DNA of 53,833 nucleotides, from NCBI GenBank assembly GCA_001724265.1, contig MEDY01000196.1, positions 1 through 53,833 on the forward strand, read 5' to 3'. Positions 7,690-50,063 of the stretch are shown piece by piece. The translations under genes were made by a program, and so were the position numbers. The notes under the pieces were generated by a model. That model saw only the letters and a list, made by a program, of their open reading frames with translations, ran no database searches and was not told where the DNA came from. This stretch comes from Rhizaria sp. SCN 62-66. Its lineage: Eukaryota. The first letter of the stretch is position 1. Each line of letters opens with the position of its first letter.

Positions 7690-8504
7690 TCGGTGTTGGC
7701 GCCGGGGATCGAGGCTGGCAGCAGCGGCTGCGTGGGCCGCACCAGCGGCAGCGGGTTGTGCGCCAGCGCGGTCGCCATCGCCCCGCGTGCCACGGCGTCC
7801 GTGGAGGCGAAAACCCCGGCGCTGCTGAGCGCGAACTGCTGCTGCTGTTGCTGTTGTTGCTGGAGGCTGCGCCCATGGCGCGCGCGCGCCTGTTTGCGCA
7901 GCGCACGCTCCCGCTTCGCATCATCGTCGCCGCTGCTCTCCGCGTCGCTGGCGCCGTCGCTGCCCGCGCTTGCGTCCGCGTCCGGGTCCACGTCGTCTCT
8001 GTGGCCGGCGGCAAGCGCCGACGCGAGCAGCGCCGGGTCGGGCTCGAGCAGGCCAAACGGCCCCGGCCCGGTCAGACTGTGCTCTGCGAAGACACCGCCG
8101 AGGTCATCATTGGTATCATGACTGTGACTGTAGGGCCGGCTCGCCTACCGCGGTTGCTGCAGCTACATTTGGCTTTGATTCCCCTGTTGCTGCTGGAGCA
8201 GCGGCTTGTACGCCAGCGGCTGCGGCCCCGCCCCGGCGGCGCTGAGCGCGGCGGCGAGCGCGGGCGAGCCGGGCACGGGCGTACGCGCGAGTGTGCGCCT
8301 CAGCGCGCGCTCGGAGGTCTTGATCACGGGGGTGAGGGGAAGCGCCGCACCGGCGCCGCGGGCCGTGATGGGGCCCGCGCGCGGCGGCCCCGTGGCCCAG
8401 GCCGCCTGGCCGAGCGGGAGCGACGAGATCAGCGAAGCCGAGGGGCGGCGCGCGCTGCCACCGCGGGAGGTGTGGGGGCGAGAGAAGCCAAGGAGCGGGG
8501 ACGG

Positions 8505-8546
<42 letters not shown>

Positions 8547-10346
8547 TTGTTGCTGTTGCGACTGAGCAGCGAGGGCTTGCGAGAGGGCGAACGAGTTGAG
8601 AGGCAGAGTCATCTGCTGGACGTTGCCGCTCCACACTGGGGACTGCGCTCCCTTGCTCTGCGCAAACAGGCCATGCTGTTGATGCGGCTGAGTGCGTGCG
8701 CTTGAAGCCTGCAACTGAGGGCAAGAGGTGCTGCTATTGGCCTGATTGTTACAGTCGTCATCGTGCTGCACCGCGGCCGACGCCTGCTGCGCATGCTGCT
8801 GCGGTAGTGCGCCGGTGCTGGCGAGGTAGGCTGTGGTAACGAGCGACACGGTCTGCGCGCTGCAGCCCGCGCAGTTGGGCCGGGGGCATCCTGGCCTGGC
8901 CACGGGCGCCGGCCGCGGTCCGAACAGCGACGGACTCCCCGGCGTCCCCGCCGCTGCCGCAGTGGCGCCGGCGGAGCCGGCGACGGCTGTGAAGGGCGGG
9001 GACAGCGTCGGCGCGGCGGTGTGCGGGCGCCGGCCGGGCGCGAGAGCCTTGAGCATGTGCTGCCGCGTCCGGCTCGCGGCGGCCGCGCTGTCGTTGCGGT
9101 CAGAACTGCCGCTCGCGCTCGCATTTGCACCCGCTGCTGTTGCACTGGCGCTAGCAGCAGCAGGCGTCGCAGCAGCAGCAGCGGCAGCGGCAGCGCTGTC
9201 AGCGGCGCTGTTGGCGTTGCTCCCGTCGGCCGCCACGTCGGTGGCCATGAGCGCGTCCGTGTCGGCCGCGGCGGCAGCGGCCGCGGCGGCGGCGGCGGAC
9301 GACTGCAAGTGCTGGAAGCGCGCCTTGTGCTCCGCGTCGAGCCCGAAGGCCTCGACCTGCGTGAGTCGGAACTGCACCTGGTCGATGCCGCGCACAAGCG
9401 CGCGCCGCTGCTGCCGCAACAGCACGGCCGCGCGCAGCGACGGGTGCAGTTCCGAGAGCTTGCGGCCGTGCGCGCGCGCCGCGGCGGCGGGCAGCGGGCG
9501 GCCCAGTTTGAGCAGGCGCTGCTCGACGAAGGCGCGCGTCTCGTCCGAGCACAGCGGCGGGTCGATCGCGGTGCGCTTGTTGGCGTTGACAATGGTGACC
9601 AGGGCGCCGTGGTCAAGCAGCTCGCCCACCACGCCCAGCTGCGCGCGCTCGCACGACAGGTGCAGAGCGGTGTTGCGCCGCACATTGGCGTGGTTCGGAT
9701 CCGCGCCGTAGTCGAGCAGGATGCGCGCGACGGCCGTGGCACCCACCCACGCGCAGTGAAACAGCGCCGTCGAGCCGTTCTTGTCGGCCGCGTTAAAGGC
9801 CTCCAGCACGGCCTGCGGCGAGCACTGTCGCTGCGCCCAGGCGCGGATGAAGGCTGTGTCGTCCGCCTTGCACGCCTTGGCGATCGCAGCTACCGGGTCC
9901 TTGACGTCCAGCAGTAGCGCCTCCACGCGCGCGCGCTCGGCGGCGGCGGCCGCGGCCGCCTCGCGGCGCTGGCGGGCCTGCTGCGCGGCGGCCGCGGCGG
10001 CTTTGGCGGCCTCGACCGACTCTGTGGCCGTGGCGGCGGCGGCGGCGGCGGCCGAGGCGGAGGACGGCACGAAGACGGCTGTCCAGAGCAGCGCCGAGTC
10101 CGGGTGGGAGCCCGAGACAAGCTCGCGGCGGGACAGCGGCGCGGGGGCCGTCGGGGGGCGCGCTGAGAAGGACAGCGACGGGGATGACGCGTGCGATGTG
10201 GACTCGGACGCAGACGCAGACGAAGCCGAGGCTGAGGCTGAGGCGGAGGCATCTAGGGGCGTTATAGAAGCGTTATGACGCAGGAAGTCATTGGAAAAGG
10301 CGGGTGGCACCTGTTCATCGGGTCTAGCCGGCGCGGCGTGGGACAT
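3081..10346 (-). CDS. Giant (~2421 aa) Ala/Gln-rich protein with N-terminal ankyrin repeats; 3 in-frame TAG codons
   Basis: ORFs 8163..10346, 4788..7991 and 3081..4691 share one frame and are separated only by TAG at 8163-65, 8145-47 and 4788-90. I translated the gaps and found no TAA or TGA. Ankyrin motifs DKNGSTALFHCAWVG..ARILLDYGADPNH and RNTALHLSCERAQLGVVGELLDHGA lie at ~9560-9795. Final TAA at 3081 abuts AT-rich DNA. Confidence 0.8.
8508..8558 (-). repeat. (CAG/CAA)17 polyglutamine microsatellite inside the ankyrin gene
   Basis: Read directly as (ctg/ttg)n on the + strand. Confidence 0.95.
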
Positions 10347-11236: not shown

Positions 11237-14200
11237 ATGTCCGGCCCTACGTCCGTGACGCTTGCCGTCGAGGCGCTTACGGCCAAGCTTGAGCGTCTGG
11301 CGCTCCTCGAGGACCAGATCCGCAAGCTCGAGCGCGGCGACTCGACTTCTATCTCCCTCGCTACCGTCGCGCCGCCCGCCGGCTCCCCCGCGACCAGCCT
11401 CGCCAAGGCGCAACAGTCGGCCTTCGAGGCCGCGCTCGACGCCGATGGCGACGGCCCCGACGGCTCCGACGCCTCTCTGTCCTCCGACCGCGCATCAAAG
11501 AACTCCGCCAACAGCGCGCCTCTGCTCGCGGCTGGCGGCAAGACGCTGTACCGGCCGATCTTCACCGAAGAGGACGCGCGCGCCAAGCTTAAGGACTTCT
11601 CGCTGGCCTTTGCGGACATGACGGCCGCGCTGGCGTACCAGCTGCTTGCCGCCTGCTGCAACCGCGCGCGCGACCGCCGCAGCTACGAGTCGACCAAGAT
11701 CACCCGCGCCGACCTGGACAAGCTCAAGATCGCCGTCCACTCGCAGAACCCCGAGGTGTCGGCCCCCGCCAAGCTGCGCCGCGCGGGCGTGCAGGACCAG
11801 CTGAAGCAGCTCACGGAGCAGCAGGCGCAGGCACAGCGCGCGTGGCAGGAGGCCGTGCGCGTGCTGCGGCTCGCCTACCGCGGCAAGGCGCCCGAGACCG
11901 ACGCAGAGTTCGACGCCCTCTCGCTCGCCATCGAGGCCTGGCACGACGTCAAGCTCACGGCCTTCCAGCAGCGCTCCGAGCAGTGCCGCGGGGGCGTTGC
12001 CGCCGCCGTGGCCGCGGTAGCCGCCACGACTGCTGCGCTCGCGACCAAGGACCAGCCGCCCGCTGGCTTTTCGCGCACGGCGCTGGCGCGCAACCGCATC
12101 GTGATCGCGCGCCGCGTCGTCATGACCGAGGCGCAGGCCAGCGCGGCGCGCGCTTTCGAGCCCCCCGCGTCGGCGCTCGACTCGCCCGCTGCGGCCGCCG
12201 CCGCCATCGCCGCCGCCGCGGCTGCCGCCGCGGCGGGTGCGGGCGCCGGCAGCGACGCCTCGGCCGGCGCGGGCGCCGGCGGCAGCTCCAGCGCCGCCGC
12301 GGACGCCGCGGGGCAGCCCACGTCGGCGGTGGCGTACTTGGGGTCGCCGCTGGTGGCGCCGCCGACGGTGTCGCAGCGGCGACTCGCGTCGTACGAGGCG
12401 CAGCGCAAGGCGGAGCTGCAGACGGCGCGCGACTTTCCCGTCGGCGCCTCGGTCCAGGCCATGGGCCGCGCGGGCTCCGTCTTCTTCACCGGCCGCCTTG
12501 CGCTGGGGCCCGCGCCGTGGGTGGGCATCAAGCTCACGGTGCCGCACGGCGACGCGGACCCGCAAGTGTTCGCGCACTGCGCGTCGCTGCCGGTGCGCGC
12601 CAGCGCCGACATCAAGCGCGCGCTGCGTTGCGCGCCCGAGCAGGCGCTCTTCGTGCCCGCCGTGCTCGTGCTGCCTTACAACGAGCGCGCGCTGCCCAAG
12701 CTGCGCCACAGCGAGCGCGCGCACGCCGCCGCGTTCAAGATCCAGCGCGCGTTCCGCGGGTACCTGAGCAGGCGCGCGCGCCGCGATGCCGTCGTAGTCG
12801 AGACGCACGCGCACGGTCCCTACGCCGCTGTTGACGCGCTCGCCGTCGCAGCTGCCGCGCTCATGGTCAAGCGCCCCGCCGCGGCCGACGAGGCCGGCGA
12901 CGACGCTAACGGCGACGCCAACGGCAACGGCAACGGTAACGGCAACGATGACGCTGGCTTTGGCGCCATGTCCGCACGCGGTGCCCCCCCGAGTACCAGC
13001 AGCAACAGCAGCGGCAGCGGCAGTGGCGCCGCGTCCGGCTCCGGCAAAGGCGCGGGGCTGCCGTGGGGCGCCGGTGAGCCGTCCATCTCGGCGCTGGCGC
13101 GGTATCTGACGTCGACGCCCGCGACGTCGACCCCGCTGGCTAAGGCGCGCGCGCTCTTCCGCTGGGTTACCGCGGCGATCGCGCAGTCGTGGGCCGCGGC
13201 GCCCGAGGCCGAGGCGGACCCGGCGGCCGTGCTGGCGGACCGCCAGGGCACGGCGCTGGGCATCGCGGCGCTCTACACGGCGCTGGCCGAGGCCGCCGGG
13301 CTCGACTGCATGGTTGTCCAGGGCGTCGGCAAGGGCTGCGGCGCGCTCGTGACGTCGCGCTTCACGCCGCCGCTGCCGCCCGCGGGCACGGCGCCCGCGG
13401 CCGCGGGAGGGATCGGCGCGGCGCCGCAATGCGGCATCATCCCCCTGCAGCCGCACCACCTGCTGGTCCCGCTGCCGCTCACTTCGGGCGGCTCCGCCAC
13501 CGCGTCCGCGGGCGCCCACGCCGCGCACGCCCACCACGGCGCCGCCACGCCGCTAGGCTCCCCGTCCGCGACGCCCGGGCCGGACTCAGACGGCGACGCC
13601 GGGAGCAGCGGCGCCGGCGGCGGCAGCGGCGCGAGCGGCGGCGTCTCGGGCGACGCGCCCGACGGCGTGACGCACTGCTGGAACGCGGTGCGCGTGGGCC
13701 CGGACCGGTATGCGCTCGTTGACTGCGCCTGGGGCGCGGGCTCCTGGCGCGGCTTCCGCTTCGCGCCGGCCTTCTCGCCCGCCTTCTTCGACGCTGAGCC
13801 CTCGGTGTTCGCGCTGGACCACTTCCCGCTGGCCGTCATGGGCGGCAAGCGCCTCTTCGCCGATCTGGGTCCCTTCGCCGCCGAGCCCTGGCGCGCGCAG
13901 TTTCCCCGCGCACCCGTCGCGCCCGCCGCGGGCCCTGCCGCTCGCGCCTCGCACGCGGGCGTCGCGCTCGACATGCTCACCGCCGACGGGCCCGGCGCCT
14001 TTGTCGCGCGCGGCGCTGCAGAGCACGCGCCCGCGCTGTTCCGCTTCGAATTCGAGAACGCCTTCCTGCCCTCGCGCGCCTTCGCCGAGCTGGGCGCGCG
14101 GCTGATCCACCCCGCGCCGTTGTCGTCGCCCGTGCCCGTGCCGCGCGCGACGGGCGGCGCGCTGCCGCTACAGGCCGCCACGCCGTCGACCTTCGCTGTG

Positions 14201-18964: not shown

Positions 18965-18996
<32 letters not shown>

Positions 18997-23564: not shown

Positions 23565-26500
23565 ATGCCTCACTCCCCAGACGGCCCGCCCATGACGTCC
23601 ATTGTCGCCTCTGGCGAGCTGCTTCGCCAGCTGGCAAACACGGTCTCCGCGCGCCGCGTCTCCGGCCTGGCCGCCGAGCCCGCAATGGGGTACCTGCTGG
23701 GCACGCCCGACGCGGCCCTGCTCGCGGAGGACCCCGTGGAGGGCTACTCCTTCGTCGACGTGCCCTGCGCGCCGGGCGCGCTCGTTGCCAGCGGCGCGCT
23801 GATGCTGCCGCCCTCGGTGCGCGGCGGCGTGCACCTGCACTGCGGCCCCATCGGCTCGCTCGCATCCCTGCGCCTCGCCGCGCCCGACGGCGTGCCCTTC
23901 CTGGGCGTTCTCGTCATCGCGCCAGACGCGGCGGCCGCTGACCTGGCCGCGCCACCGCCCGCGGCCACCTTCGCCGCCTTTGCGCGCGCCGCCGTGCTCG
24001 ACTCGGCCGGCGCGCTGCCCTTCTGGCGCGAAAACCTCCGCGTGCTCCGCGGCAGCGGCGCCACCGAGGCCACCGCCGCCGCCGCCCCGCTTGTCGTCCT
24101 CGTCGCCATCCCCGCGCCCGCCGCGCTGCTCGGCCCCGCTTCTACCGCTGGCGCCGCTGATATTGCGGACAAGGACGGCGTGGTGCGCGTGGGCGTGGCG
24201 GGGCAGCGCGCGTTCGACCCCGCCTATCTGCGCGCATTCGTCCTCCACGGAGACTGCGACTGCACCGCTGACGATGACGCTGATGCTGATGACGAGGGCG
24301 AGGGCCAGGGTCTGGTGGTCGGCGACGACGACGACGGCGTGGTCCGCGCGCTTGCGCGTCCGCTGCGCGTCAAGCTCGGCACCAGCGACGTCGACACGTA
24401 CAGCAATAACGATAATGACAACGCCAACAAGAGCATCAACAGTGATCCCCTGACGAGTCGCCTGGATGTGTCACGCTTTGTCGCCTTTACGCGCACGCTC
24501 ACGCTGCGCATACCACCCTCGCTGTCGTCGGAACACATGGCGGCTTACCTTAAGTCGCAGCTCGACACAGCGCCCGCACTCACGTGCGTCTCCAGCAACA
24601 CGGACGACAATGATGACGATGACGACGAAGACGGCGAGGACAATGCTACGAATGAGAGCTCTCGTCACCGTACCACAGCCGCCGCGTGCGTGCTTACGTC
24701 TCCCACCGGCGTGTTCGAGCCTCTGCTGCTCCCGTCCCCGTCTCCGCCCACCGTCGACACGATCGCCGCCGCCGCCGCCGCTGCCGCTGCTGCTTCTGGT
24801 GGCAATGAGGCCAGCCCTCTGTTGACTGTGCCCGTGACCGTCGTCTCCCAGTCCGCCCCTGTGTCCGCGCCCCTGCCCCTCGTCCTCTCCGTCGACACCA
24901 ACGACGCCGACAAGAACGCCGCCGCCAAGAGTTCTGCCGCCGCAGCCGCCGCCTCGGCCGCCGCCGCGGCGCTCCCGGCCCCCGTGGCGCGGCCCTGCAC
25001 GGTGACGCTTGCGGCCGTCTGCGTCTTTTCACGCGCGGTGCATGGCGCGCTCACCGCGGACCGCGTCGCCGTCCGTCTCGCGTGCGCGCTCCGCGAACAG
25101 GCGCAGCTGCTTCTCTCGATGCTTGCCGCGCCCGCGCTGCTGGCCCACGAGACGGGGCTCTTCTCGCGCGGCGTCGGCGCTGATGCCTTCCCGGCCGCCG
25201 CGCTGACCACGCCCGCGCTCGCCGCCGCCGCCGCGCCGCCGCTGTCGGCCGCCGCGGCCGCCGCGGCCGCCGACGCCGCCGCCGCCCTGTCCGGCGCCAG
25301 CGGTGGTGCCAGTGCGGGCACCGGCGAGGTGAGCGCGGAGGTGCGCCGGCTGATGCAGCGGCTGCAGCGCTGGGTGAGCCCCTTCCCGCTGGCGCTGCCC
25401 GCTGAGGCCCGGGCCGCGTTCTCCGCCGCCGAAGCTGCGTACCCGTCGTACCTGCTCCCCGTGGCCTACACATTCACACAGCTCCCCGCCCCAGGCTCTG
25501 TCTCGAGCGCAACTAGCGGCAACAGCAGCGGCAGCACCAGCACGGCTGTGAACAGGAGTGCGTCGCTGTGGGCGTTCGCGCCCCTCGTCGCACTGCCGCA
25601 CTTCGACCTCGCACTGCCGGCCGACGCGTCCGCCTCGTCCGCCGCGGCGGGGGGCAGCAATACGGACCCCGTGTTCTCCCCGCTCGCCGCGGCGACGGCG
25701 CGCGCCCTCCGCGCGGCGGCCACCGACGCAGTGGCGCTCGCGCTCGCGCGCGGACGGCCCGTCGCGGACTCGCTGACTCCGCTCCCGCTGCCCGCGGCCG
25801 CGGCGGCCATCAAGACCCACGCGATGCCGTCCCCCGGCGCCGATGTAGGGGCCCTGTTGCCGCCGCGCGCGTTGGCCGCGGCGCGCACCGAGCAGCTGCG
25901 CGCCGCGCTGGCGTGGCGGCTGGGCACCGAGACCGCCTGCGGGACCTCCGCCGTGCCCATCGCCGCGCCTGTCGCAACTACGATGTAGAGTGGCTTCGGG
26001 GCGAACCACGGCTTCGGCTTCAGCTTCGGCGGCGCGGGCGAGAGTGCCATCGGGGCGGGCGCGGGCGGGCGGCTGGTCAACGTGCATCTGTCCGTGCCCA
26101 CGGTTACTTTCGCGCAGAAGACAAACGCCAGCAGCAGTAGCAGCAGCAGGAAGAGCTCCGCCAGTACCAACGACGACGGCTTCGGCTTCAACGATCTCGA
26201 CGGCGACGACGGCGCTAACGACGGCGACTCGACTCCCTCTGCTGCGAGCGGCGCTGTGATTGTCGCGCAGGTGTCGGGGCTGAGCGAGTACTGCCATTAC
26301 GGCCAAGACGGGCTCGCGGACAAGGGATGGGGCTGCGCCTACCGCGTCCTGCAGACGATCCTGACGTGGTACCGGCTGCAGGGCTTCCTCTCCGAGCGCG
26401 CGCACCCGCACCTGGCGGGCCGCGGCGGCTCCTTTGCGGGCGTGCCGTCGCACCGCGCGCTGCAGAGCGCGCTGGTGGCCGCGGGCGACAAGCCCGCCTC

Positions 26501-27499: not shown

Positions 27500-29188
27500 A
27501 TGCCTCGCCCGGCCTCCAAGCAACAGGCAGACTCTTCCCTGGCACGAAAAAGCCCAGCTCGGAAGTCGCGCCCGACTGCGTTTTCCCGCGACAACATCTC
27601 CTCTTCCTCAGAGTCCGGCGACGACTCCGAGCTTGAGGTGGTGAGCGTTGTCTCCGTTTCCAACTCGCCATCTCTCGCCCCCAATTCACCCGACGCTGGC
27701 CCCACAGCCAAGCGTGCTCGCACCGCACGGCCTAGCAAGCTTGACCTCAGCGCGCCGCACGAGGGCAGCGCCCGCGCTGGCGCTTCCTCCAGCGACAACG
27801 ATGACTAGAACGACGACGTCGCGCTCAAGTCTCACAGCTCCAGCTCAAAGGATGCCGCTGCTGCCGCTGCCGCTGCCGCCGGTGCTGACGGTAGCGGTAG
27901 CGGTGCTACGTCTGGCCGCGGCGGCCGCGGGCGCCCATCAGGGCGCGGCGGCAGCAGCGGGGCGGTCTCGCGCGGCCGAGCTGACTTCGCCGACACGGGC
28001 GCTATCGCCGGTGGTGGCGACTTGGACAGCGGGCGCGGGCGCGTGCGCGGGCGTGGGCGTGGCCGCGGCCGTGGTGCCAGCACCGGCGTGACACGCGGTG
28101 CGAGCGTCTCAACCCGCGGTGGCGGCGCGGTCGGCCGCGGCGGCCGTGGCAGAGGCAGAGGCCGCGGCCGCGGAGCCAGTGCCAGTGCCAGCGCTGGCGT
28201 GAGCGCCCGGAGCAAGAGAACCTCCACCGCGAGAGCCAGTAGCAGCGACGACGGCGGCGACGGTGGCGACGAGAGCGACGCGGACGACTTTGGCGATGAC
28301 GACGCGCCGGTCGTGGACGCTTCCTCCGGCTCTGGCTCTGGCTCTGGCTCCGGCGGGAGCCCCTCAGAGAGAGATGATGAAAATGAGGCCGTCGCCGTTG
28401 TCGAGACCCCCGTTGTGAAGCGCCGTGGCCGCCCTCCGGGGAGCGGCTCTAAGAGCAAGGGCAGCGGCCAGGCGCCTGCTGCGGGCACTCCTGCCTCCAT
28501 CGCTTCCAAGAACGGCGCCAGCGCGGCCGCGGGCGCGCCAAGAGGCGCCGCGCAGTCCGACTCGCTCATCGCGGCGGCGCAGCACGCGCGCGCGCTGCTG
28601 GCGGCCTCCCGCGACGGGCCCGGCAATCAGCGCGCGTCGGCGGCGGCCGAGGCGGTTTTCGTGCGCGCCACCAGAGAGGCCGCTGTCCGGCGCGAGCAGA
28701 TGCCCGTCGGCGCAGGCCGCCATACCTTCTGCCTCATCTCGAGCGCGCCCGCGGCCGTGCTCGCGGCCGACGCCGCCGCGATGGCCGCGCAGCTCGCGCG
28801 CGCCACCAAGGCCGCCGGCGAGGCCGCCGCGGCCGCGGCTGCGGCTACTGCCGTCGTCGCGGCGGCCGAGCGAGTGCGCGCTCCGGGCGGCAGGGGAGGC
28901 ACGGGCGCGCTTGAAAGCGACCCGGACCTGGTCCGCGTCAGGGACAGGGCTGCGGCGGCCGTGGCGGCCGCGGTCAAAGCGCAGGCGGGTGTGACGACTG
29001 CGGTGCGCGGCCTGGCCGCGGCCGGCGATCGCGGTGCGTGTGCCAGCTGCGGCGCCGAGACCAGCTACGTGTGCCGTGTCTGCTCGCTGATGGTCAGGCG
29101 GCCCGTGCCGTACTGCCTCTTGGGCGCGCAGGGTTGCTGCGCGACCGCGCACCAGATCCACTGCTTCTTGCTTGGTCTCGACGGCTGA
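27500..29188 (+). CDS. ~562-aa probable DNA-binding protein with RG/RGG repeats, an AT-hook and a C-terminal Cys/His zinc ribbon; 1 in-frame TAG
   Basis: ORFs 27494..27808 and 28022..29188 share a frame across TAG 27806-08. AT-hook KRRGRPP at 28418-28438. CASCGAETSYVCRVC..VPYC..GCCATAH at ~29039-29152. Ends in TGA. Confidence 0.75.
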
Positions 29189-32233: not shown

Positions 32234-35200
32234 TTACATCTGCGGCACTACGCCCTCGTTGTCGCCATAACCGGGCCACGCAACGTGGACATACCCGCGC
32301 TCGACGACCGGGACCGCCGCAGAGGCCGGGAACACCGGCGCCGGCTCGCCTTTGACCGTGGGCGAGTTGACCTTGTTGTCACTGGCATGAACACCATCAG
32401 TGATGTGAGAGATCGCGGTCGCGCTTGTCCCGTTGTTCACAGAGGGACTGGGAGCAGCCGCAGGCGATGACAACGCTCCCCACATCATCGCGGCCACCGC
32501 GGCGCCCATGTCCCGCGGCTTGACCGCGCCCCCCACAGCCACACCGCTGCCGTTGCCGCCGCTGCTGCTGTTGTTGCTGTTGCTGTTGTTGCTAAGGGAA
32601 TCCGCCGTAGTCGCAGCGGTGTGAGAGGCGGGAGCGAGGCGGACAATGCCGCCGGCGAGAGCAGACCCGCCCACGCAACCGCTGTCGCTGATGTCAGCAA
32701 CGGCAGCGGCGGCGGCGTCGGGGAGACGCGCGCGCGGCATCAGAAGCGCATACATGCTGCTGTCTGTGTTCACCGCAGTCCGCACGTTGACACTCGCGCT
32801 CGCGCTCGCACTCTGCGAGTGCAGCTGTGGGTCGGCGTGCGTCGGCGAGTGCGAGGGCGGAGTGGCCTCGGGGGCCATCGTCGTCTCCAGCGGCATCAGC
32901 GCAGACCGGGACGGCAGCGACGACTGAGCCGGCAGAGCGAACTGAGCCATCGAGCCACTCACACTGGCGTTATTGTCCACCACAGTCGTAGCCGCCGCTG
33001 CCGTGTTGTCGCGAGGAGCGGCGGAGGTACTTAGAGCCTTGTAAGTAGGCGCGGTGTACGGGACGTCGGGCGCGTACGCAACAACACTCCTGCCGCCAGC
33101 GGCGCCCGCGCGCGTCGCCACGGTTGCCGCGGCACTCACAGTGCTGGAGCTCACAGTGGCGGAGGTGTTTGAGGCGGGGAAAGCGCGCGCGCGGACGGGG
33201 GTAGGGGCAGTCACGGCCGCCATGCTCGACACGGCCGGCGGCAGCGCGGCATGAGGCGGTGGTTTGACGCTGTAGCCAAGCTTGCGGAGCAGCAACAGCG
33301 CCGAGGCGGCCTCGGCGCCCGCGCGCGCAACGTCGGCCGCCACCTCGGCCGCGGTCTGCACCGCGCCAAAGCCACTGGCGCTGGCACTGGCGCTGGCGCT
33401 GGCACTTGCAGGAGATTCAGCGGGAGCACCTGTCCCACTCGCACTGGGGGCGGCGGGGGGGATGGCGTTCGCGGCCGGGGGAGCGGCGACGGGCGACTGC
33501 GAGGCCGGCGGCACGCGCGCGCGGTAGCGGCCGGGCGTCACCGGAGCACACTCGGCCTGCTGCGACTATGATTGCGAGGGTGGCTGGGTCTGCTGGGCCT
33601 GCGAGTGGGCGGGTGGGCTCGCGCGCACCGGCGAGAGAGGTGGCGACTGCGCGCGCGACAGCGGCGGCGACTGCGCCCCAGAGAAGAGCGACCGCGGCGG
33701 CGACGAGGCCGAGATCAGCGTCGCGGGACGCAGCAGTAGCACTGGGCCCGCGCTCTCGTAGCCGCAGCCGTCGCCGCCACAGCCAGTTGTCGCAGCGCTG
33801 CGGGCGACGCTGGCTCTGACGGCGGCGACCGCGGCGGCAGTGGCGTTGCCGATGCTCGTGTTGTGGCCGTCGCCGCCGCCGAAAGCGTTTGTTGCGTGAG
33901 CGCTGCTACGGGCGGGCATGTGCGCCGCGGCGGCGGCCTTCGCTGCGGCAGCAACGGCAGGGTCGACGCCGCCCGCGGTGTAGCTGGCGTTCAGGCTCAT
34001 ACCCGTGTTCGTGTGAACATTAGCGTTGTTGTTGTTGACCGGCGTGGGGGCGCGACCGTGGGTTGACGCCAGCCCCGGGAGCGCCGGCCTCACCGACGAC
34101 GACGACGACGACAATGATGATGACATGTGCGGACCAATACCACTAGCACCAGTCGCGGCAGCCGCGGTGGCGGCGGTGGCGGCGGCGTAGGCGGCGGCGT
34201 AAACCGAGGCCGACACCGCGGGGCCCGCGTACGCAGGTACGGGCGCCGGCGGTAAGTGCCTCTGCAGAGGCTGCTGTTGCACATGCTGTTGCTGGCGGCG
34301 GAGCGCGGCTGCCGCCTCGGTGGCGTGCGCGGGCGCGGCCGTGAAGGGCGGCATGTGACGCGCCGCCGCGAGCGCCGGGGACAGCAGCGGCAGAGCCACG
34401 CGCGTCAGGACGTCGCCGCTGATGCCGCTCGCCACGGGCGGCGGCGGCGGCGCCAGCAGCACGGGCGCGGCGACCGAGCGCACGGTGGCCGACACCGGCG
34501 CGGGCGCTGTGTGAGCTGCTGCGGCGGCGGCGGTGGCGTGGGGGCCGGAGGCGGCGTGCCAGGCCAGCCAGGCGGGCAGGCTGTCGGGGCGGTGGACCGG
34601 GTGGCTCCAGTCAACTGCAAACACAGGCGCTGCCGCTGCAGCTGAGGCTGGGACTGACTGGGCGACTGCGGGAGCAGGAGCGAATGCGGGCGCCTGACTG
34701 TGGGCCGAGTGACTGTAAGCAGAGTGACCGTGGGCAGCAGTGGCGACGGCGGCAGGGTGACTGGAGGCAGTGGGCACAGCGGGGGCGTGCGAATAGCTGG
34801 CGTTAGCGTCTGTCAGTTGCGCTGCAAACTGCGCGCTTTGCGGGACTAACGGCGTGTACTGCGTCTGGAACGCCGAGTTGGACTGCTGCATCACAGCAGG
34901 CGTCTGCTTGAGCTGTTGTGTGAGATTCACAGCAGAAGGTGCAGCCGCCGGAGCAGCGTCAGTGTAGTGATAGTGCTGGTGGACTGCAGGCTGAGCGGCG
35001 GCCGCCGCCTTGGCGTGGGCCCACCGCTCCCGCATGCTCTCTGCGGGGCTCAGGATCATATTCACGGTGTTGGCCGCACCTTTTGCACCGTCACCGCGAC
35101 CGGCACCGAGCAGAGTGTTGCTGCCATAGCCACTGTATATGTTTCGGTACGCGTTGCCGTTGCCGCCGTAGGGCGTCGCCGCGGTGACCGCCGTGCCCGT

Positions 35201-37357: not shown

Positions 37358-37886
37358 CGCGGCGAGGTGAACCGAAGCCAGGAAGGAAACAGAAAACCTC
37401 TCTAACGGTTTTGAGGGCGGCAAATGCACGAGGGGTCGCGTAGGAGTGAGAAATCAAGTGCAATTCAAAAGTCATGTTTAAAATACAAACCATTAGTAAG
37501 ATATCAAACAGTATGAAGTCATTTTAATGACATTAACGATCAAGAGACACCGCAGTGACAATAATGAGGATCGCCTTAGTTGTCCGCTCCCTAGACACCT
37601 AGGTCCGTGTTCAGCGACAGCGAAGTTTGAGGTGGCCAACAAAACAGTAGCTAACAGCTGGTTCAATCGTTAAGTGCTGTTATATTTGAGTGTTATAGAA
37701 TTCATAATGACAAGTCTATATTTTAGTTCTTGGGTGACACCAGAGGCTGCATCTGTATTGAGTTATTCGCTGCTAATATTTGCATTCTCCAAATCGTATC
37801 TTGCTCCACAGTAAGCTTTCTTTAAGCCTCTCGCACTCCACCCACCGGCCATAGCTTCTGCTGTGCCGCGTCTGTCCAAGTAGGCG

Positions 37887-40800
37887 ATGTCGCATAACTC
37901 CAATCCCCCCGGTTATAACCTCTCAGAGGGCGCACCTGCCGGCGGTGTGAGCACGGACCCATCGTCGACCAACACCAGCAACAACTACAGTGACGATATC
38001 GGCGCGCATGCCGGCGCCACGACCTCAGCAACGACCGCCGTCGCCGCGCCCCGCTCCATGGCCGCGTCCGCCCTTAGCGCGATTGCCCGCGTGCTGGCGT
38101 CGCTGCTGCGCCGCAGCCCCTTGGTTGCCGCGCGCGTTGCGGGTACGACGGCGGCCGCGGTCGCTGTTCTGGCGCTCGCCGTCCAACTCGTCCTGCGCTC
38201 GCGCCGGCTCACCGCGCACGTCATCTACCTGAACTGGCTGCACTTCCCCTGGCTGGACTTTGCGCGACCCGAGCGCGCGTCGTGCTTCGGCTTCTTCCCT
38301 GGGCTGCCCGCGACGCGCTTCGTGCCCGCGCTTTCGCCTTACACAGCCAACGCCGTGCCGTGCTGGGTCACTGCGCCCGCGCCACGGACGCTGCGCGTGC
38401 TCGCAGCAGGCGCGGCCAGCGACAGTAACATCAATAGCAACAGCTATAGCGTTAGCAACAACAAGAGCGACGACGAAGGCGAGACTTGCAACAAGTTCGC
38501 GAGTGACACTGCGAGTGCTTCGACTCCACCGTCGCAGTCCCAGTCCTAGTCGCTCCCCCGGTCGACTGTGCTGTCGATCCCGTGGGCGAGCGACCCCGAC
38601 CGGCCCTTACCGGCCCCCGAGCACCTCTTTGCGGACCCCTTAGACCGGCCCGTGGTCGTCTACTTACACGGCGTCTGCTCGCACCGGGCAGAGATGCACC
38701 GCTCGCTGCTGTACACATTCCTCTCCGCGCCCCACGCGGCCGCGGTTGTGCCCAAGCCCTTTACACAGGCGCAGTCGGAGTCGGAGTCGGAGTTGCGTTA
38801 TGATGCGGAGACTGAGTATGCGGAGACGGCTGCTCAGAGGGGGCCGTTGCAGCGGTGTCCGGCCCCCTTCGCCTTCCCTCCCACTGGCGTCCCCTCGACT
38901 GCTAACCACAACATCAGTAACGCTTACCAGGCAGCGCCGCCTGCGGTCTCCGCGCCCACAGACAGCGACAAGAGAGAGGCCGCCCAGGCGCTGGCGCAGT
39001 CGCTGGCCGTGCTCCGCGCCGGCTTCTGGGCCCTGCCCGCCAGGCTCTCGGGCGTCTTCGCCCCGCACGCCACCGCGGTGCCCGTGGAGGCGCCGAACGC
39101 GTTCGTGGTGTCGCTTGACTACCGCGGCTTCGGCGACAACACGCACTCGCGTCGCGCCTGGCTCCAGGGCCGCGCGCAGGACTACAATGCGCGCGCGCAC
39201 ACGGCGCGGCCCGACGGAGACGACGGTGAAGACGACGACGAGGGGGACTCTGCTGATGCGACCACAAACACTGCACATATGAAGAGCGCGAGCGCCGCAG
39301 CGGAAGAGCAAGATCTGTGTTTCAGCGACTATTTCAACCCTCCGATTGCGCAGCCGCGCTCTTCACCGTCACAGAGCGACAGCTGCGCCTTCACCGCGAC
39401 TGCTACGAAGGACCGCGCCGACTTGGCGCCCGTGGGCCCCGAGCGCGCCCCGTTCACGGCCGCGGGCTTTGTGCCGCCGCCGCGGCGCCAGCGTGCGGGT
39501 CTGGCGGTCCCGGCGCCGCTGTCGCACGCGCGCGCGCGGGCGCTATGGGGGCGCAGCCCCATGTTCGACCCGCGGCTGCTGTGGCCGCGCAGCCCCGCTG
39601 CTGGACGCTCTGCGGGTCGTAACGCCGGTTACGCTGCGGAGTCCTCAGCTGAGGGTGCTAAGACTGAGAGCGACAGCGGTGCTGGTGCAGGCTTCGCGGT
39701 CCCGCTCGGCGGGCGCGACGGCGGACGCTCCCCCACTGCCATCGCGGCCGCCGCGGCCACGGTGGCGACCGCAAAGCCGGTCCCGTGGTTTGTCGCAGCC
39801 CCGCTGGCGGCGCTGGCGGCGGCCGCGAGCGTGCTGCTGCCGCCGTTGCGCGCTGCCCTCTCGGCTAACTCGGTTCCCGCCCCGCTTCGCACCTCAACCA
39901 ACGCGCACGCACACGCACACGCGGGCGCGAGCACAGTGACTGCGACGGCGACGGCGACCGCGACGGTGACGTCAATCGTGACCGCGACGGCGGACGCGAC
40001 TGGGGCAGTTACGCAGACGCAGACGCAGACCGCGCAGACCGTGACCGTGACCGCGACAGCGGACGCGGCCGTCCCGTCCCCGGGCTCCGAGGCGCCGACC
40101 CCCGCCGGCCTACTATGGGACGCGCTCGCGGTGTGGGACTGGCTGACGGTGACGTGCCGCGTGCCGCCGCACCGTATCGTGCTGGCGTCGCACTCGCTGG
40201 GCACGGCCGTGGCGGCCAAGCTAGTCGACGCGCTGGCCGAGCGGGCGCACGCCCTCGCTGACCCCGCGCACCCGGGACACGCGTGCGCGTGCAAACACTG
40301 CGTGGCGCCCCGCTTTACGCAAAGCAACGCAGCAGCAACAGCAGCGACGCCGGCGAGCACTGAGGTCGCAACACCGCAGGCGTTGGTGTCGGTCGAGAGC
40401 TTGCGCTCCGACGGTGTGATCACCACGCAGTCGGCCTACACGCGCTGGGCGGCGGCCGAGCTGCTGCCCGCGGGCGTGGTGCTGGAGGCGCCTCTGCTGT
40501 CGCTATCCTCGGTGGTGCGCGACATGCCGCTGCTGCAGCCGTTGCTGGCGCTGAACAATCCATTCCCGTTCAAGATCAAGCTTCCCGCGCCGCCGAAGCT
40601 GCCGCCGCTGCCGCCGCTGCCCTCGCTACCGCGTCTGCCCTCGCTCGCGCGGCTCCAGCGCCTCTCGGGGCTGTCGTCGCTGTCCTCGCTGCCGGCGTTG
40701 CCGTCGCTGGGGCAGATCCGGCGCAGGCTGCGGCGGCAGCCGACGCTCACGCCGGCCAGCACGAGCGGCCGCCCGCGGGGCGACGGTGCTGCCGGCGCCG

Positions 40801-43800: not shown

Positions 43801-44897
43801 CTAGTTCAGGCGCCGATGCTGTTGCTGCCGCTGCTGCTGCTGGTGCCGCAGTGACACCCCCGATGCACACGCGCGCGGTGCTGACCTCCACCGTCGCCAC
43901 GGGCGGCGCCGGGCGCGACACGGTGCTGTCGCTGCTGTCGACCCCGCCCGCGCGGGCGTTTGCGCGCGGCACAGGCGCGCTCCCTGCGCCGACAGTGCCC
44001 GGCTTCGACGGGAGCAGCAACCGCAGCGGCAGCGTCGACATCGACGGGAGTGCTGGCTGTGATGGCACCAAGGTCTTCCTCGCGGCCGGTCTGGCGTCGC
44101 CCCCGTCCTCGCCGTCTCTGTCGTCGTCGGCGTGGCCGTCGCTCACCGCACTCTCAGCGCTGCCCGTGCCCCCGCCATCGCTCGCGATCGCTGCTACAGA
44201 TGCTTCCGACGGCGACGACACGGCCGAGGCGTTTGCATTCACTCCTGTTGTCAATACGACAACCGCCGCGGCGGCCGCCTCCGCGGCGTCTGCCGCAGCC
44301 GCCGCTGCCGCTGTAGCCCAGGCTGAGGCGGACGCCGCCGCCGCCGCCGCGTACGCCGCGGAGGCCGCCGCCGCGGCCGCTGGGTCAGTGACGTTCCACC
44401 CTCAGCTGCCCTCGGTGCTCGAGTCGACCGCGGCGCAGTGGGAGCTGCCCGGCGAGGGTGGGGGCTCGGTCCGCGCTGCCGCCGCCGTCACGCTGCCCGC
44501 CGCGCTGCCGCCCATCTTGCGCGCCATGGGCCTGCCCGTCGCCGTTGCCGCGATCTCTGACTGCAATGGCGAGGCTGGTGGTACGTCGAGTAGTGAGTCT
44601 AATGAGTCGCTGTTCCAGAGCTGCGTGCCCGCGGCGACGGCGCGGCACGAGCAGCGGCGCGTGCTGCGGCTGGGCGGGGGCGCGGCGGTGACCGTGGACG
44701 CTGCGGTGCCCTTCGCGGCGCGGCCCATGTGGGGCGGCGCACTGTCCAGGGCCGCAGCCAGGGGCGCCGTGGCGTTCGTGAGCGTCGCCGAGTCGGACCA
44801 CAACGAGCTGGTGTGCTACAGCTCGACCAGGATTGCGCTGTCGGCGTTCATCTTGGCGCATACTGATCCGCTTAAACAGCAGCAGAAACAACTTTAA
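37887..44897 (+). CDS. ABHD12-like alpha/beta hydrolase, ~2336 aa, inflated by very large low-complexity insertions; 1 in-frame TAG
   Basis: A TM-like segment and VIYLNWLHFP come before TAG 38547-49. After it, in ABHD12/13 order: VVYLHGVCSHRAEMHRSLLYTFLS, SLDYRGFGD, PTPAGLLWDALAVWDWL, ASHSLGTAVA (Ser 40194), VLEAP, LVLHGGRDGVVP (Asp 41499), SDHNEL (His 44799). Ends TAA TAA. Confidence 0.82.
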
Positions 44898-45164
44898 TAA
44901 CATCTTTTTACTGTGTCCCGACGACAGCAAGATCATGTGACGGTGAAGTTCATTCATCGAATCTTGTTTTACATTAGTTTCTATCATTACAATAGTGAGC
45001 TCAATATAATTGTGAGTAAAAATAAAGATTTATTATCATGACGTTAATTTTAGAGAATTATAATTTTTTAAAGATCATTTAAATTGGTTGAGATTCGTTG
45101 CATTTTTTATTGTATTTTCAGTGTTTTATTCTTGCCGTTACAAAGTTTGATGGTCCAAAGAAGT

Positions 45165-48100
45165 TTAAACCAGAATATCCCTCCGCGGCCGACGCACGCT
45201 TCCAGTTACCTTATCCTTCTCTGCGCGCATTCTTTCCAGCATCTTGTGCAACTCAGCGTCGACATTCTCATATCTGCTGCGCCGCCCGCTTGCCAGCGCG
45301 CGCGAGATCGACCGCTCCAGAGCGCGCGCGCGTTGACGGGCACGTGCGCGTTCAATCTTTTCACGGCGCTGCGCTATGCGCTGCAGCCGCGCTTCTGTGC
45401 TTGCATGGCGGCGGGGGTGCGGACCCCTGTAACGCGTTGTCCCAACGTTGCGATCCACGGGCACGCTTTCGATGCGAGGACTTGGACGACGATCAACAGT
45501 GAGGTCGTCCTAGTCAGCAGCCATTACTGTGCGTCTCACAGTTCGTGTCACTCCGCCACTGCTGTGGGCGCGCGTGTTATCATTGCCACGGACGTTTTCA
45601 GTGCCAACGTCGACTGGTGCGGTCGTTCCGCGAGGGCGGCGGAGCGCGCGCACCTCGTTGCGGCGCTCCAAGAGCACTCGGCGCGACTCGGCAGCAGCGT
45701 CGGCGGCGGATGTGAAACGCAGCTCAATATTTTGTCCGCGCCATGTACCTGTGCGTGTACGTGGCAGTCCCCTGCTTGCTCCTGAAACAGCGTCTGAGAA
45801 TGCACTCGTTGCAGTGATTGGACTTGTACCGGGCACAATTCTCAGCGAGACAGAGCGACTCGATGACGCACTTTCTAGCTCACGCTCAAGCGCTCTACGT
45901 CTCATCACAGTTGCGAGCGCACTATTACGGGTCGCTCGAGAACTTGAGCTGACGGGGTCAGCCTAAGGAGCGCGGTGAGCGCGAGGTGCGCGCTGCCGCC
46001 TTGCTGCTGCTGCTGCTGTTCCAGCGGGAAGCGAGGCACGACTGATAGGAGGCCGCGACGTTGTGGCCATTGTTGTTGAGACTGCGGGTGTTACAGTTAA
46101 TGTAGATGCCACCGATGAAGTATCTGGAGTTGTAAATATGACAGGAAGTGCGGTGCCACGCGTACGAGAAGCTGACGGTTGTGCCTATGTCCGGGGGCTT
46201 GTCGGGCTTGCACGACCCACACGAGCTGCAGAAGTCACACTTGTTATAGCTGATGCGGCTGTCGCATTTACAGGTGCATTGATAGGGCACACACCGTTAT
46301 TCTCATCGTCTTCTGCATCTTCTGCATCTTCTGCTGGGTCTGCTGCTGCATGGCATACGTCCCCGTTAGGAGACACTTCAGTCGCAGGCACATTCGGAGT
46401 CGGAGTCCGTGATGTCTCGCCCGATCCAGTTGCTGTGGAGCTAGCGTTGGTGCTACGACCGGTACTGGAGCTAGAGCTTGCCGGGGGAGTCACTGAAGGC
46501 CGTGGCGTGGTTGCGGGTTTCTCAGCAGCCGCAGCTGCAGCAGCGGCTGCAGCCGCGCGGCTCCGGAGACGCTCACAGTGCGCATGCCTCTGCAGCTCGC
46601 GGCGCCACTGCCTGCGTCCAGCACGGCCACCGGGGAGATACGTGCCGTCGGCAGCGCGGTTGCGCGATGACGGCGGCAGTGGACATTTGTCAACGTCTTT
46701 ACGCTTCTCTTTCTCTTTCTCTTTCTCCTTCTCGCTTGACTTATCTTTTTGTTTCTCCTTCTTCTCCTTGTCCAAAGCAATGTTAATTGACACATTTGCC
46801 AGTGGTGTATGGCGAGATGGGGGCACCGTCGGAGCAGAGACTGCTGCGGCGGGAACCGACACAACTGCTGTTGCAGTGATGACGACAGCAGCTGGTGCAG
46901 CCGATGGTTGCGAACGTGGTGAGGATGACACCGCTGCATTGCTAGTGTTGCTGTTACTTGTACTGATTACTGCGGTACGAGGCACCTACATTGTAAACGT
47001 GCGCATTGCTCGCCCACGTCGAGGCTGCATTGCGCCACTGTTTGCCCTGCGCACAGTGCGAAAGGGTGGTTGCGTATTAGGCCTTAAATTGCGGCTGTTG
47101 CTGTAGTAAATCTGATGCGGCACATACGCACTCAGTGCATCGTAGAAGCGGCAACATCCACCCTTCACGAGGTTGGTCGGGGTTAAGCAGCACGTGCGCG
47201 CATTAGTCATTGCGTTTTGTAGTGCAAGCGTTGCAGCGTACCCGCTGCGCATTGCGTAAACCGCGTTCAACGCGTCTTGACTCGAGTACCCAAGTGACCG
47301 CAGCGCGAGCCGCACATCTAACGAGTTTAGCACATAATCAACACTGGAGGGAATTGTTGGGTAGTAGTATGGTTGAGGTTGCGGCTGCGGAGGTGGGGGC
47401 GGCGGAGGCCGGGGGCGTGGGTGGGGCTGCGGGCGAGGCCTGCGGTCATCGGGGCGCGGTTGCGGCGGGCGCGGCTGTGGCTGCGGGGGACTTGGCTGAG
47501 GTGGACGCGGCTGCGGCGGATTTGGCTGTGGGGGATTTGGCTGCGGAGGGTTCGGCCGAGGCGGATTTGGCTGAGGCGGTCGCGGTTGTGGCCGTGGTGG
47601 GCGGCGGTCATCAGGACGCGGGCGCGGCTGCGGCGGACGTGGCTGCGGCGGGCGGGGCTGCGGGCGCGGACGGCGGTCGCCAGAATGATGGTGGCGATCG
47701 TCACCCAAAGGACTGCGGTCAGCGACTAAATTGTTTGAAACCTCACTGCTCACAGTTGCTTGCGCAGAGGTAACACTTTGAGGCAAGGCAACATTATCAT
47801 TGAGGTCTGAGTTGTCGCTTGCAGGAGAACTCCTGTTGTTGTCAGCGTCACGATTGGTAATGTTGCTAGTGTCCGTGATGGCACTATCAGTAAAGTGACC
47901 ATAGCTGATCGTATTACCGTTGGAGATGTCACCACTTGTATCAAACAACAGGCCACTGTGCTCGTTATTAGAGCGATAATCATATGTGTTCTCATTGCCA
48001 CTAATAATATCGTCTCGAAGTGACATCACACGAACTTCACGCCCGCGGCTGCGCGCATGTTCCGGTGCCTCAGAGCGACCGTGAGCATTGCTTGCACTCC

Positions 48101-50063
48101 CGCGCTCAGCATCTTTCGCAATCTTTTCGATCGCTGAGCTCAGTTGGCAGCACCCGCGGCGCACGCGCTTATTACGGTCGTTGCCGCAGCAGAAAGTTAG
48201 CGCGCGCCTGGCCTCACGCGCTTGACGCGACAGTGTAAGAGAGGGGTTGCGTTTCATCGCAATCAATGCTATGCGTGCGCGTGCAGGGTCAAGTCCGATT
48301 GCATTAAGTCCGGGAATCATACTCGGCGTTAGTATCGGTGATGCTCCGTGGACACCAGTTAAACCCGCTGCTAAGGCAGTTGAAATTGCCGACATGATTG
48401 ATGACGAGTCACGACCGCTACTATCAAGTAGGCTGATAAAATTTGGTCTTGAGCTAGACTACAAGGTACTAACCCGACGACCACGCGCCTTAAAGCGATC
48501 TATAGGAGCCCGCTCATCGCGCTTAGCGGCGCTTTCAAGAACCATAAGCAGGTTAGATGGGTTGGAGTCGGCGCGGAAACGATTCAAAAAGGAACCCTGC
48601 ATCGGAACAAGATACAACCACATCTGCTAAGGATTGTGCTATTTTTGATTGGTACTATGCATGGGCGCAGGCTTGAGGTTAGCGGAATCGGTTGCCGCCA
48701 TCCTGACCTTATTGCTGCCTGAACTTGTTGCAGGGCTAGTGGCAGCCGAGGTCAGCTTGTCTTTCGGCTTGTTTGTGGATGCAGTGCTTGCAGTCGGGGT
48801 TGTTGTCGTCGCTGAAGGTGGTACAGACGTTAATCGTGTTGCCCTCACTCGGGACCCACCACGTGTTTCAGCCTTGGGCTTACGCGTGCTTTCACTCTTG
48901 CTCTTGTCACTTTTACTGTTATCCTTGTTCTTGTTGATAGCGAAGTGACCACGAGCACCAAACGAGCCTTGTCCCGCAATAGCACCAGCTGGGTCATGCG
49001 CAAACTGCAGCGCTCTGCGCCCGCGCTCAATGTCCGCATTTTGCCTGCGCTTTACCTTCCGCGCCCGTCTCTCCTCAGCCGCAGTGATGGCCGCAGTCAG
49101 GTCGACGCCGCCGCTGCTGACGTGGCCACGGCTGGCGTGTCCGCCGAGCGCGGGCACGCGCGCGCCAGCGTCAACTGCGGCGGCGACAGCCACAGCGCGG
49201 GGCTCGGGCGCGGGAAGAAAGAGACGGCGCGCGAGCGTGCGGGCAGCGGCGGGGAGCGCAGAAAGCGACGGCAGCGAGATGTACTGCAGGAACCCACTCT
49301 TTTCGTTCCCGTCGCTGTTACGACCCGGGCGATAGCTCGCCGCGTCTGCCAAATCTAGCGCAGCACTTGCAGGGGCTGCGCGCGACGCAAATGCAACCGC
49401 AGCAAGTGTTGCTGATGGCGCCAAGACCAGTCGGCGCGCGTGGTATTCATTTGGCAAAATCGGTGTAAAGCCTGCTGTTGCGCACTTCGAGTGGCTCATC
49501 TTGAGATTTTTGTCATGAGCAGAGTTTGAAGCCTGCAGAGCGCAAAGACAGACTTCAGAGTTTGCAGGGCAAGCGCAAAACTCGTTGCACTTGGATTGGT
49601 ATACAGTGGGCGATGTGTGCTTTGTCGCTGCGACGGTGGCAGCAGCGGATACACTCGCGACGGGGGGACGCGTGCATCGGCCGTTTTTGCGACGATACGT
49701 GCCGCGCGGACATGCAAGTTGAGCAAGGTTAACATGAGAATGCGGCTTTGGGCGCGGCCCAGATGTAGCAGGCTTAGCAGGGTTCTTGGGAGGCGGCGGC
49801 TTCAATGCGCCTTGCGAGGGAGTAGGGGTGGAAGTCGGAGCAGTCGTTGTTCTGGCCTCCCTGGCTACAATGCAAGTGACAGCAAAAGATAGCGTGAGTC
49901 AAGTTATAAAAATAATAAGAAGAGTACTTCAATACACACTTACATGTTGCAACGTACTTGAAGTCGTTGAAGGGGCTGGCTTGGAGGCGTCTGTCGGTGG
50001 ACCCGAAAGCGCAAGCACAACTTGAAGTGCGAATGCGCACAACAAAAGGCGTAGCCACGCCAT
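45165..50063 (-). CDS. Putative secreted ~1601-aa Cys/Pro/Ser/Thr/Arg-rich protein, 2 exons (50063-49958, 49864-45165); 7 in-frame TAG codons
   Basis: Exon 1 encodes signal-peptide-like MAWLRLLLCAFALQVVLALS. ORFs 48639..49805, 46986..48395, 46185..46985, 45510..45908 and 45165..45464 are one frame broken only by TAG (48639, 48627, 48459, 46986, 46185, 45963, 45510). Terminal TAA at 45165 lies beside AT-rich DNA. Confidence 0.72.
47375..47680 (-). repeat. Imperfect 15-bp tandem repeat encoding (P-Q-P-R/N-P)n
   Basis: RPQPRPPQPRPPQPRPRPDDRRPPRPQPRPPQPNPPRPNPPQPNPPQPNPPQPRPPQPSPPQPQPRPPQPRPDDRRP in the translation. Confidence 0.9.
49865..49957 (-). other. Predicted intron (93 nt, phase 1) of the secreted-protein gene
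   Basis: A|GTACGT...TTGTAG|CC; AT-rich; joins the signal-peptide exon in frame (PSTTSTREARTT). A nearby GTAAGT donor would not keep the frame with this acceptor. Confidence 0.6.

Follow-up and report, generated by a model that had tools for sequence, protein, structure and literature searches.

In-frame TAG codons in a GC-rich contig of an uncultured wastewater eukaryote are very likely sense codons and probably specify glutamine

Introduction

A nuclear code in which UAG specifies glutamine and both UAA and UGA remain stops has the pattern of NCBI translation table 15, and one in which UAA and UAG (together UAR) both specify glutamine is table 6. Here we analyse a 53.8-kb stretch of eukaryotic DNA (contig MEDY01000196.1 of assembly GCA_001724265.1, positions 1 to 53,833, hereafter the window) in which 14 TAG codons lie inside the coding frames of six genes, and suggest that its host very likely translates them. 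Glutamine is the commonest meaning of a reassigned UAG in the sections of PMC5304391 and PMC11687900 that treat variant codes, to which our citations of both papers refer throughout, and UAG-only glutamine codes that keep UAA as the main stop exist: they are described there for Iotanema spirale (Fornicata) and for the ciliates Protocruzia tuzeti, Hartmannula sinica and Trochilia petrani. The same sections give UAG as leucine in the sainouroid rhizarian exLh and in three TARA phyllopharyngean ciliate metagenome-assembled genomes, and both organisms of PMC5304391 have UAA as dominant stop and under-use UAG in highly expressed genes. UAR is read as glutamine in many ciliates, hexamitin diplomonads, oxymonads, some ulvophytes and, according to PMC11687900, Amoeboaphelidium protococcarum, and one ciliate of that paper has UAA as lysine and UAG as glutamate. 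Nuclear codes that give UAG and UAA different meanings are rare (the sections we draw on name exLh, Iotanema, Scotinosphaera and some ciliates), and they inform how eRF1 and suppressor tRNAs constrain the evolution of the code.

Compared with these systems, the window most resembles the Iotanema-type glutamine codes as described in the cited sections, having in-frame UAG, UAA as dominant stop together with UGA, and UAG as a rare codon; if UAG is glutamine here it makes up 2.5% of the glutamine codons, versus about 8% in I. spirale (PMC5304391). Unlike in those codes, the meaning of UAG in the window is deduced from context, and the DNA is very GC-rich and forms a long contig of many genes. The host also comes from aerated wastewater and bioreactors, has nothing that links it to Fornicata, and is not a ciliate, because the contig is long, multi-gene and GC-rich and TGA is used as a stop. 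The leucine code of the exLh type (the pattern of table 16) likewise has UAG decoupled from a dominant UAA, but the context statistics of the window disfavour leucine. The UAR glutamine codes share with the window a change from stop to glutamine and glutamine-rich low-complexity proteins; unlike in those codes, TAA is never in frame here (0 of 14,589 codons) and ends 8 of 12 genes. The green alga Scotinosphaera, where UAG is serine (PMC11687900), is similar in being non-ciliate and UAG-only, but serine is disfavoured in the window and there is no green-algal affinity, green-algal sequences being absent from the 120 best IFT46 matches. The full-text literature was also searched for wastewater eukaryotes with a code of this kind, and no such paper came up. 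UAG-only nuclear reassignment is already known, though rare, and the window is best described as a further case of it.

Results

In-frame TAG codons of the window

The stop-to-stop frames of the window hold 18 in-frame TAG codons, and subtracting four that are non-coding leaves 14 coding sites in six genes, the number given in a preliminary description of this DNA; all contexts which that description quoted (at 38547, 33566, 8163/8145, 48639/48627, 46185, 27806 and 45510) are present in the sequence. When TAG is allowed as a sense codon, adjacent standard-code open reading frames (ORFs) join into long frames that terminate at TAA or TGA. Half of the sites lie in a single orphan gene, which we call ODD (delimited as 45165-49898 or 45165-49502, minus strand). 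In the list below an asterisk marks the TAG and GC3 is the G+C content at third codon positions; contigs of run X3 come from another study, X4 is a strain about 1% diverged, X6 is a further run and L001 is a JGI contig.

8163..8165, minus strand: TAG at codon 728 of the ankyrin-repeat low-complexity gene (3081-10346, minus strand), context QSQM*LQQ; frame 0 scores best by codon usage on both sides, GC3 0.89/0.81, without in-frame TAA or TGA
8145..8147, minus strand: TAG in the ankyrin gene, six codons past the previous site, context QQPR*ASR; codon usage
4788..4790, minus strand: TAG in the ankyrin gene, context GHYSG*HTS; codon usage
25986..25988, plus strand: TAG in the UFM1-specific protease gene (23565-26888, plus strand), some 90 codons before the start of the Peptidase_C78 domain, context ATTM*SGF; codon usage and orthologue ORFs
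27806..27808, plus strand: TAG in an RG-rich gene (27500-29188, plus strand), context DNDD*NDD; the downstream score ties with frame +1 (RG repeat), 0 in-frame TAA or TGA
33566..33568, minus strand: TAG in low-complexity gene LC1 (32234-37357, minus strand), context PPSQS*SQQ; codon usage; same in X3 contig
38547..38549, plus strand: TAG in low-complexity gene LC2 (37887-44897, plus strand), context SQSQS*SLP; codon usage; same in X3
48639..48641, minus strand: first of seven TAGs in ODD, context NQK*HNP
48627..48629, minus strand: second TAG in ODD, context HNP*QMW
48459..48461, minus strand: third TAG in ODD, context VSTL*SSS
46986..46988, minus strand: fourth TAG in ODD, context TFTM*VPR
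46185..46187, minus strand: fifth TAG in ODD, context SPRT*AQP; same in X3, X6 and L001
45963..45965, minus strand: sixth TAG in ODD, context HRAP*ADP; same in X3 and L001
45510..45512, minus strand: seventh TAG in ODD, context MAAD*DDL; kept in X3, X4 and L001

The four non-coding sites are:

52708..52710, minus strand: 3' acceptor (CCCTAG|G) of an intron of the NEK kinase gene
37881: TAG in the 5' untranslated region of LC2, before the start codon
21390 and 21339: TAGs in the 5' untranslated region of SMC1, before the start codon

Evidence that TAG is read as sense

In the coding frames of the six genes we count 14 TAG, no TAA and no TGA. The other five frames of these genes contain 224 TAG among 921 stops (24%), so that the probability of drawing TAG 14 times by chance is 0.24^14 = 2.5e-9. 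This comparison is partly circular because the ORFs had been delimited by TAA and TGA, and independent support was therefore sought in the frame of ODD, in codon usage and in orthologues. The ODD frame has seven TAG and no TAA or TGA over 45167-49901, and since each of the other five frames of 44900-50100 carries 40-102 stops, its open frame is not a product of chance. Codon usage was scored with a likelihood model fitted to TAG-free genes (5012 codons), over stretches of 120 codons on either side of each TAG. At the seven sites outside ODD the same frame scores best on both sides, with GC3 of 0.68-0.93, the downstream tie at 27806 being the sole exception. The four non-coding TAGs served as a control, and there the upstream side is non-coding, with 2-5 in-frame TAA or TGA and GC3 of 0.42-0.52. 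Within 60 nt on either side the G+C content is 58-76% at TAG sites outside ODD and 47-64% at those inside it, and all 14 coding TAGs are situated outside the AT-rich introns.

The terminators of the window complete this picture. Among 12 recognisable genes eight end in TAA (at 2383, 3081 [the ankyrin gene, minus strand], 21855, 26886, 29452, 32234, 44895 and 45165), four in TGA and none in TAG, and neither TAA nor TGA occurs in frame in the 14,589 codons. Taken together, these data leave us highly confident that TAG is a sense codon here and that TAA and TGA still stop translation. A dual, context-dependent meaning of UAG is possible, since the sample of terminators is small (12 genes).

Eight of the sites were counted as reproduced in independent assemblies, those individually named being 33566, 38547, 45510, 45963 and 46185. 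Contigs of run X3 show no difference over these five sites; strain X4 retains 45510, with the three differences in that contig all located elsewhere; an X6 contig retains 46185; and L001 is identical over 42569-46980, which includes three TAG sites. The X4 and X6 contigs over 38547, 48459, 48627 and 48639 have one difference each at an unlisted position, and these sites were not counted there. Orthologues of the UFM1 protease provide a further line of support. Two metagenomic proteins, P0125 (50% identity) and P0126 (41%), have the same long alanine-rich architecture as the window protein and are single ORFs, whose alignment with it starts at the N terminus, passes the TAG at 25986 and reaches the C78 domain. 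The window gene is split by this TAG, and its database entry consists of two proteins of 798 and 268 aa.

Which amino acid TAG specifies

Glutamine occurs within three residues of 7/14 TAG codons, 41/81 CAA codons and 214/457 CAG codons, and of 230/1109 leucine and 55/242 tyrosine codons. In the preliminary description the similarity of some contexts to glutamine repeats had been pointed out, and two of these are as quoted: 38547 (plus strand) reads TCG CAG TCC CAG TCC TAG TCG, and 33566 (minus strand) reads TCG CAA TCA TAG TCG CAG CAG. To weigh all sites together we used a likelihood of neighbour composition, calibrated with random draws of actual sites for every amino acid, matched to the TAG sites in their spread over genes. 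An uncalibrated form of this likelihood, in which proline, tyrosine, histidine and glutamine lay within 4 log units, was dropped as uninterpretable and replaced by the sampled nulls.

With all 14 sites and rare-codon nulls, the observed contrasts of glutamine with each alternative lie at quantiles 0.08-0.47 of CAA sites. Such contrasts were reached in 0/2000 draws each for leucine, glutamate, lysine, tyrosine (TAT) and serine, and in 3-5/2000 for tryptophan; the p-values are 0.006-0.018 for methionine and 0.016-0.028 for proline. At the seven sites outside ODD, p is at most 0.028 for all nine alternatives (leucine 0.004, tyrosine [TAT] 0.028). Glutamate and lysine gave 0/2000 in every subset, serine gave 0.014-0.032 in subsets, and tryptophan 0.0015-0.018. 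The calibrated context test fits glutamine, rejects glutamate and lysine, disfavours leucine, serine and tryptophan, and leaves tyrosine and histidine as candidates. Given that TAG is sense, glutamine is its likely meaning, on account of these context statistics and of the literature prior that glutamine is the commonest meaning of a reassigned UAG; tyrosine, histidine or another residue is then an unlikely meaning, and leucine a very unlikely one.

The table 15 reading proposed in the preliminary description is thereby strongly supported as far as TAG as sense and TAA and TGA as stops are concerned, with glutamine as the best candidate, unproven by context. That description had also kept leucine and glutamate open. 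Of these glutamate is rejected, and leucine is disfavoured.

Several observations weigh against glutamine, or against translation of TAG altogether. Only 1/14 TAG codons stands directly beside a glutamine, versus 27/81 CAA and 131/457 CAG codons, and no TAG is part of a run of at least three glutamines, versus 18/81 CAA and 78/457 CAG. Histidine is never rejected with 14 sites (p 0.14-0.30). When one site of each adjacent pair is dropped (12 sites), p is 0.021 for leucine, 0.12 for tyrosine, 0.089 for histidine, 0.19 for proline and 0.07 for methionine, and glutamine itself falls in the tail for two contrasts (0.013-0.015). The seven ODD sites alone carry almost no signal (leucine p 0.058). 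With all tyrosine codons as null, the log likelihood ratio of tyrosine versus glutamine is 0.1-1.5, and the posterior of tyrosine under a flat prior is 0.26-0.73. As the preliminary description had cautioned, no site falls in a conserved column: 0/14 are inside a Pfam match, and the column of 25986, the site covered by orthologues, lies in a variable insert, with a gap in P0125 and isoleucine in P0126. ARAGORN found no tRNA gene in the window, and no Rfam family was matched there. Lastly, run X5 has polyA-RNA contigs in LC1, in LC2 and towards the 5' end of ODD, but no listed piece spans a TAG, so that reading through TAG rests on sequence statistics.

Discussion

Our favoured explanation, which we hold to be probable on balance, is that the host translates UAG, most likely as glutamine, and that UAA (the dominant stop) and UGA stay terminators. 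PMC5304391 states that reading UAG with UAA kept as a stop needs a CUA anticodon, which a single mutation can produce from tRNA-Gln(CUG) or tRNA-Leu(CAA). The host would need such a tRNA(CUA), able to pair with UAG but not with UAA and probably descended from tRNA-Gln(CUG) through a single anticodon mutation, as well as an eRF1 whose reduced recognition of UAG keeps it from competing effectively at this codon; we infer this mechanism from what the cited sections of PMC5304391 say of such codes. The use of the codons in the window is as follows. UAG is rare (14 of 14,589 codons), does not occur in the 5012 codons of the conserved genes with strong codon bias, and is concentrated in low-complexity regions and in ODD, a gene with relaxed codon bias. 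TAA is the most frequent terminator despite third positions with 78-92% G+C in most genes, which is the opposite of what base composition alone would lead one to expect.

The alternative that survives best, though we consider it unlikely, is that TAG is sense and is read by a matching tRNA(CUA) as tyrosine, histidine or another residue that is neither glutamine nor leucine (serine, tryptophan, glutamate, lysine, proline or methionine). The weak separation of tyrosine from glutamine with all tyrosine codons as null, the values for tyrosine, histidine, proline and methionine at 12 sites and the acceptance of histidine at 14 all leave room for it, and TAG stands beside glutamine as rarely as tyrosine and leucine codons do. 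Precedents also exist for other residues. In Mesodinium UAR is read as tyrosine. Nuclear UAG is serine in Scotinosphaera and glutamate in an uncultured ciliate (PMC11687900). Against these stand the simulations described above, in which glutamate and lysine are never reached, serine and tryptophan only rarely, and tyrosine, when compared with TAT sites, in 0/2000 draws (0.028 outside ODD). Moreover, codes with UAG as histidine, proline or methionine were not met in the cited sections of PMC5304391 and PMC11687900, and the histidine codons (CAY) are not single-step neighbours on the route to a CUA anticodon described in PMC5304391.

We think it very improbable that the TAG codons are untranslated, be it as part of short in-frame introns, through U-to-C editing to CAG, or as true stops or nonsense codons in split or decaying genes, where the GC-rich DNA after the TAG would be open only by chance. 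The host does have introns, both known acceptors of its NEK kinase gene are TAG, and around 48639/48627 one can propose an in-frame GT...TAG pair with a spacing of 69 or 81 nt; TAG does serve as acceptor at 52708 and at the boundary of NEK exon 2, but at none of the 14 coding sites. The GC-rich DNA also yields long chance ORFs, including one of 680 aa antisense inside the transglutaminase-like gene, and no RNA contig listed spans a TAG. However, this reading would require TAG at 14/14 interruptions versus an expected 24%, and has to account for an ODD frame that runs without TAA or TGA over about 1578 codons at 55-60% GC, and for a codon usage and GC3 that keep the same frame after each TAG outside ODD. 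The introns of SMC1 (about 180 nt, 38-39% GC, the first meeting an in-frame TGA within 18 codons) are unlike the surroundings of the TAGs. UFM1-protease orthologues cross the site in one ORF, the TAGs are kept in independent samples (45510 even in a diverged strain), and no gene ends in TAG.

The least probable alternative is leucine, read by a tRNA-Leu(CUA) derived from tRNA-Leu(CAA) as in exLh and the marine phyllopharyngean ciliates: a leucine UAG with UAA as dominant stop is a documented nuclear code (PMC5304391, PMC11687900), a rhizarian origin is compatible with the homologue matches, the ODD sites reject leucine weakly, and QSLSQQ, which the preliminary description had rightly reported elsewhere in the window, occurs in the transglutaminase-like gene, so that SQS*SQQ could be SQSLSQQ; but rare leucine codons reach the contrast with glutamine in 0/2000 draws (0.021 with 12 sites, 0.004 outside ODD), glutamine lies within three residues of 50% of TAGs versus 21% of leucine codons, and in DNDD*NDD and AAD*DD the TAG is surrounded by acidic and polar residues.

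As for the lineage, we lean slightly towards an unrecognised clade of uncultured wastewater eukaryotes with at least two further species visible in metagenomes, in which UAG was independently decoupled from UAA. If this is true, the clade would be about the fourth non-ciliate nuclear lineage with UAG decoupled from UAA, and the first with a very GC-rich genome, in which TAA is yet preferred over TGA and TAG as a stop. In a bolder form, UAG would specify a residue other than glutamine or leucine, for example tyrosine. A GC-rich, non-ciliate lineage found in several wastewater data sets would be an independent case of such a code, and it is tractable because both DNA and polyA RNA exist. There is a practical consequence too, in that gene callers using the standard code split proteins of the host, as in the UFM1 protease.

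The window and its host

The window has a G+C content of 55-77%, and GC3 is 0.78-0.92 in most of its genes. It carries eukaryotic nuclear genes, some recognised by Pfam, for IFT46, SMC1, a NEK-type kinase and the UFM1-specific protease (Peptidase_C78), together with the ankyrin-repeat low-complexity protein, a transglutaminase-like/IQ protein, a class-B acid phosphatase and an AMP-forming acyl-CoA synthetase, and several further low-complexity genes without Pfam matches. SMC1 (16610-21233, minus strand) has three exons and two introns, with GTGCGT or GTACGT at the 5' borders and CAG at the 3' borders. The NEK kinase gene (50461-53300, minus strand) has at least three exons and at least two introns, with one donor reading CAG|GTCAGT; besides the acceptor at 52708, a further TAG is the acceptor of intron 1. 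The same DNA is present in bioreactor and wastewater metagenomes from several studies and partly in a polyA metatranscriptome. The window belongs to the nuclear genome of a GC-rich, uncultured eukaryote with spliceosomal introns, and as part of our favoured explanation the host is, with reasonable probability, flagellated.

For IFT46 and the UFM1 protease, the closest homologues from named organisms share only about 46-53% identity and belong to several supergroups (metazoans, a Ploeotia vitrea transcriptome, Chromosphaera, Gefionella, Phalansterium and Pigoraptor), and these best matches do not place the lineage. Closer uncultured relatives exist among metagenomic proteins, the IFT46 protein P0002 being 74% identical, with a low-complexity N terminus that can be aligned too. 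The NEK kinase, queried against genome contigs, gave 56 loci, all of them bacterial-type kinases with at most 41% identity, and three scans of viral contigs gave no relative above 49% identity.

ODD has about 1444-1578 codons, a GC3 of 0.53 versus 0.78-0.92 elsewhere, and CAA as 19 of its 42 standard glutamine codons, and it contains a PRPPQP-type proline repeat and two Cys-rich repeated modules. No Pfam family matched it, a protein search (residues 1-340 of a 570-aa query, lengths 313-998) returned only the protein itself, and a metagenome scan found only L001, a contig of the same organism. PolyA-RNA contigs cover its 5' part. A protein search with the ankyrin gene (1501 aa) gave no match and missed even its own 1067-aa ORF, as low-complexity words swamped the search, and blastn, run with the 14 TAG contexts to look for paralogous copies, gave one chance match only.

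Minor observations

Contigs of X3, X4, X5 and X6 were aligned to 30000-49999, and no canonical intron joint was seen among them over this interval; the depth peaks and about 750 joints in this alignment are uninformative because GC-rich low-complexity repeats drew many foreign contigs. At 42156, where LC2 is rich in alanine and threonine, one X4 contig has a 15-nt in-frame insertion polymorphism. Another gene is represented by its partial 3' end at 3-635 (minus strand), which has no TAG and encodes a protein of coiled-coil repeats whose C terminus is hydrophobic. Long ORFs of up to 680 aa occur in alternative or antisense frames of the GC-rich genes (11495-13537 and 41162-42967 on the minus strand, 17565-19220 on the plus strand, and many others), and these are by-products of base composition, not genes. 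Finally, ATG directly precedes TAG at 3/14 sites (8166-8168, CAA ATG TAG CTG; 25983-25985, ACG ATG TAG AGT; 46989-46991, ACA ATG TAG GTG). Methionine makes up 1.05% of residues, and the binomial p, uncorrected for the roughly 40 tests that were possible, is 4e-4; this excess could be a codon-context effect on the decoding of UAG, or chance.

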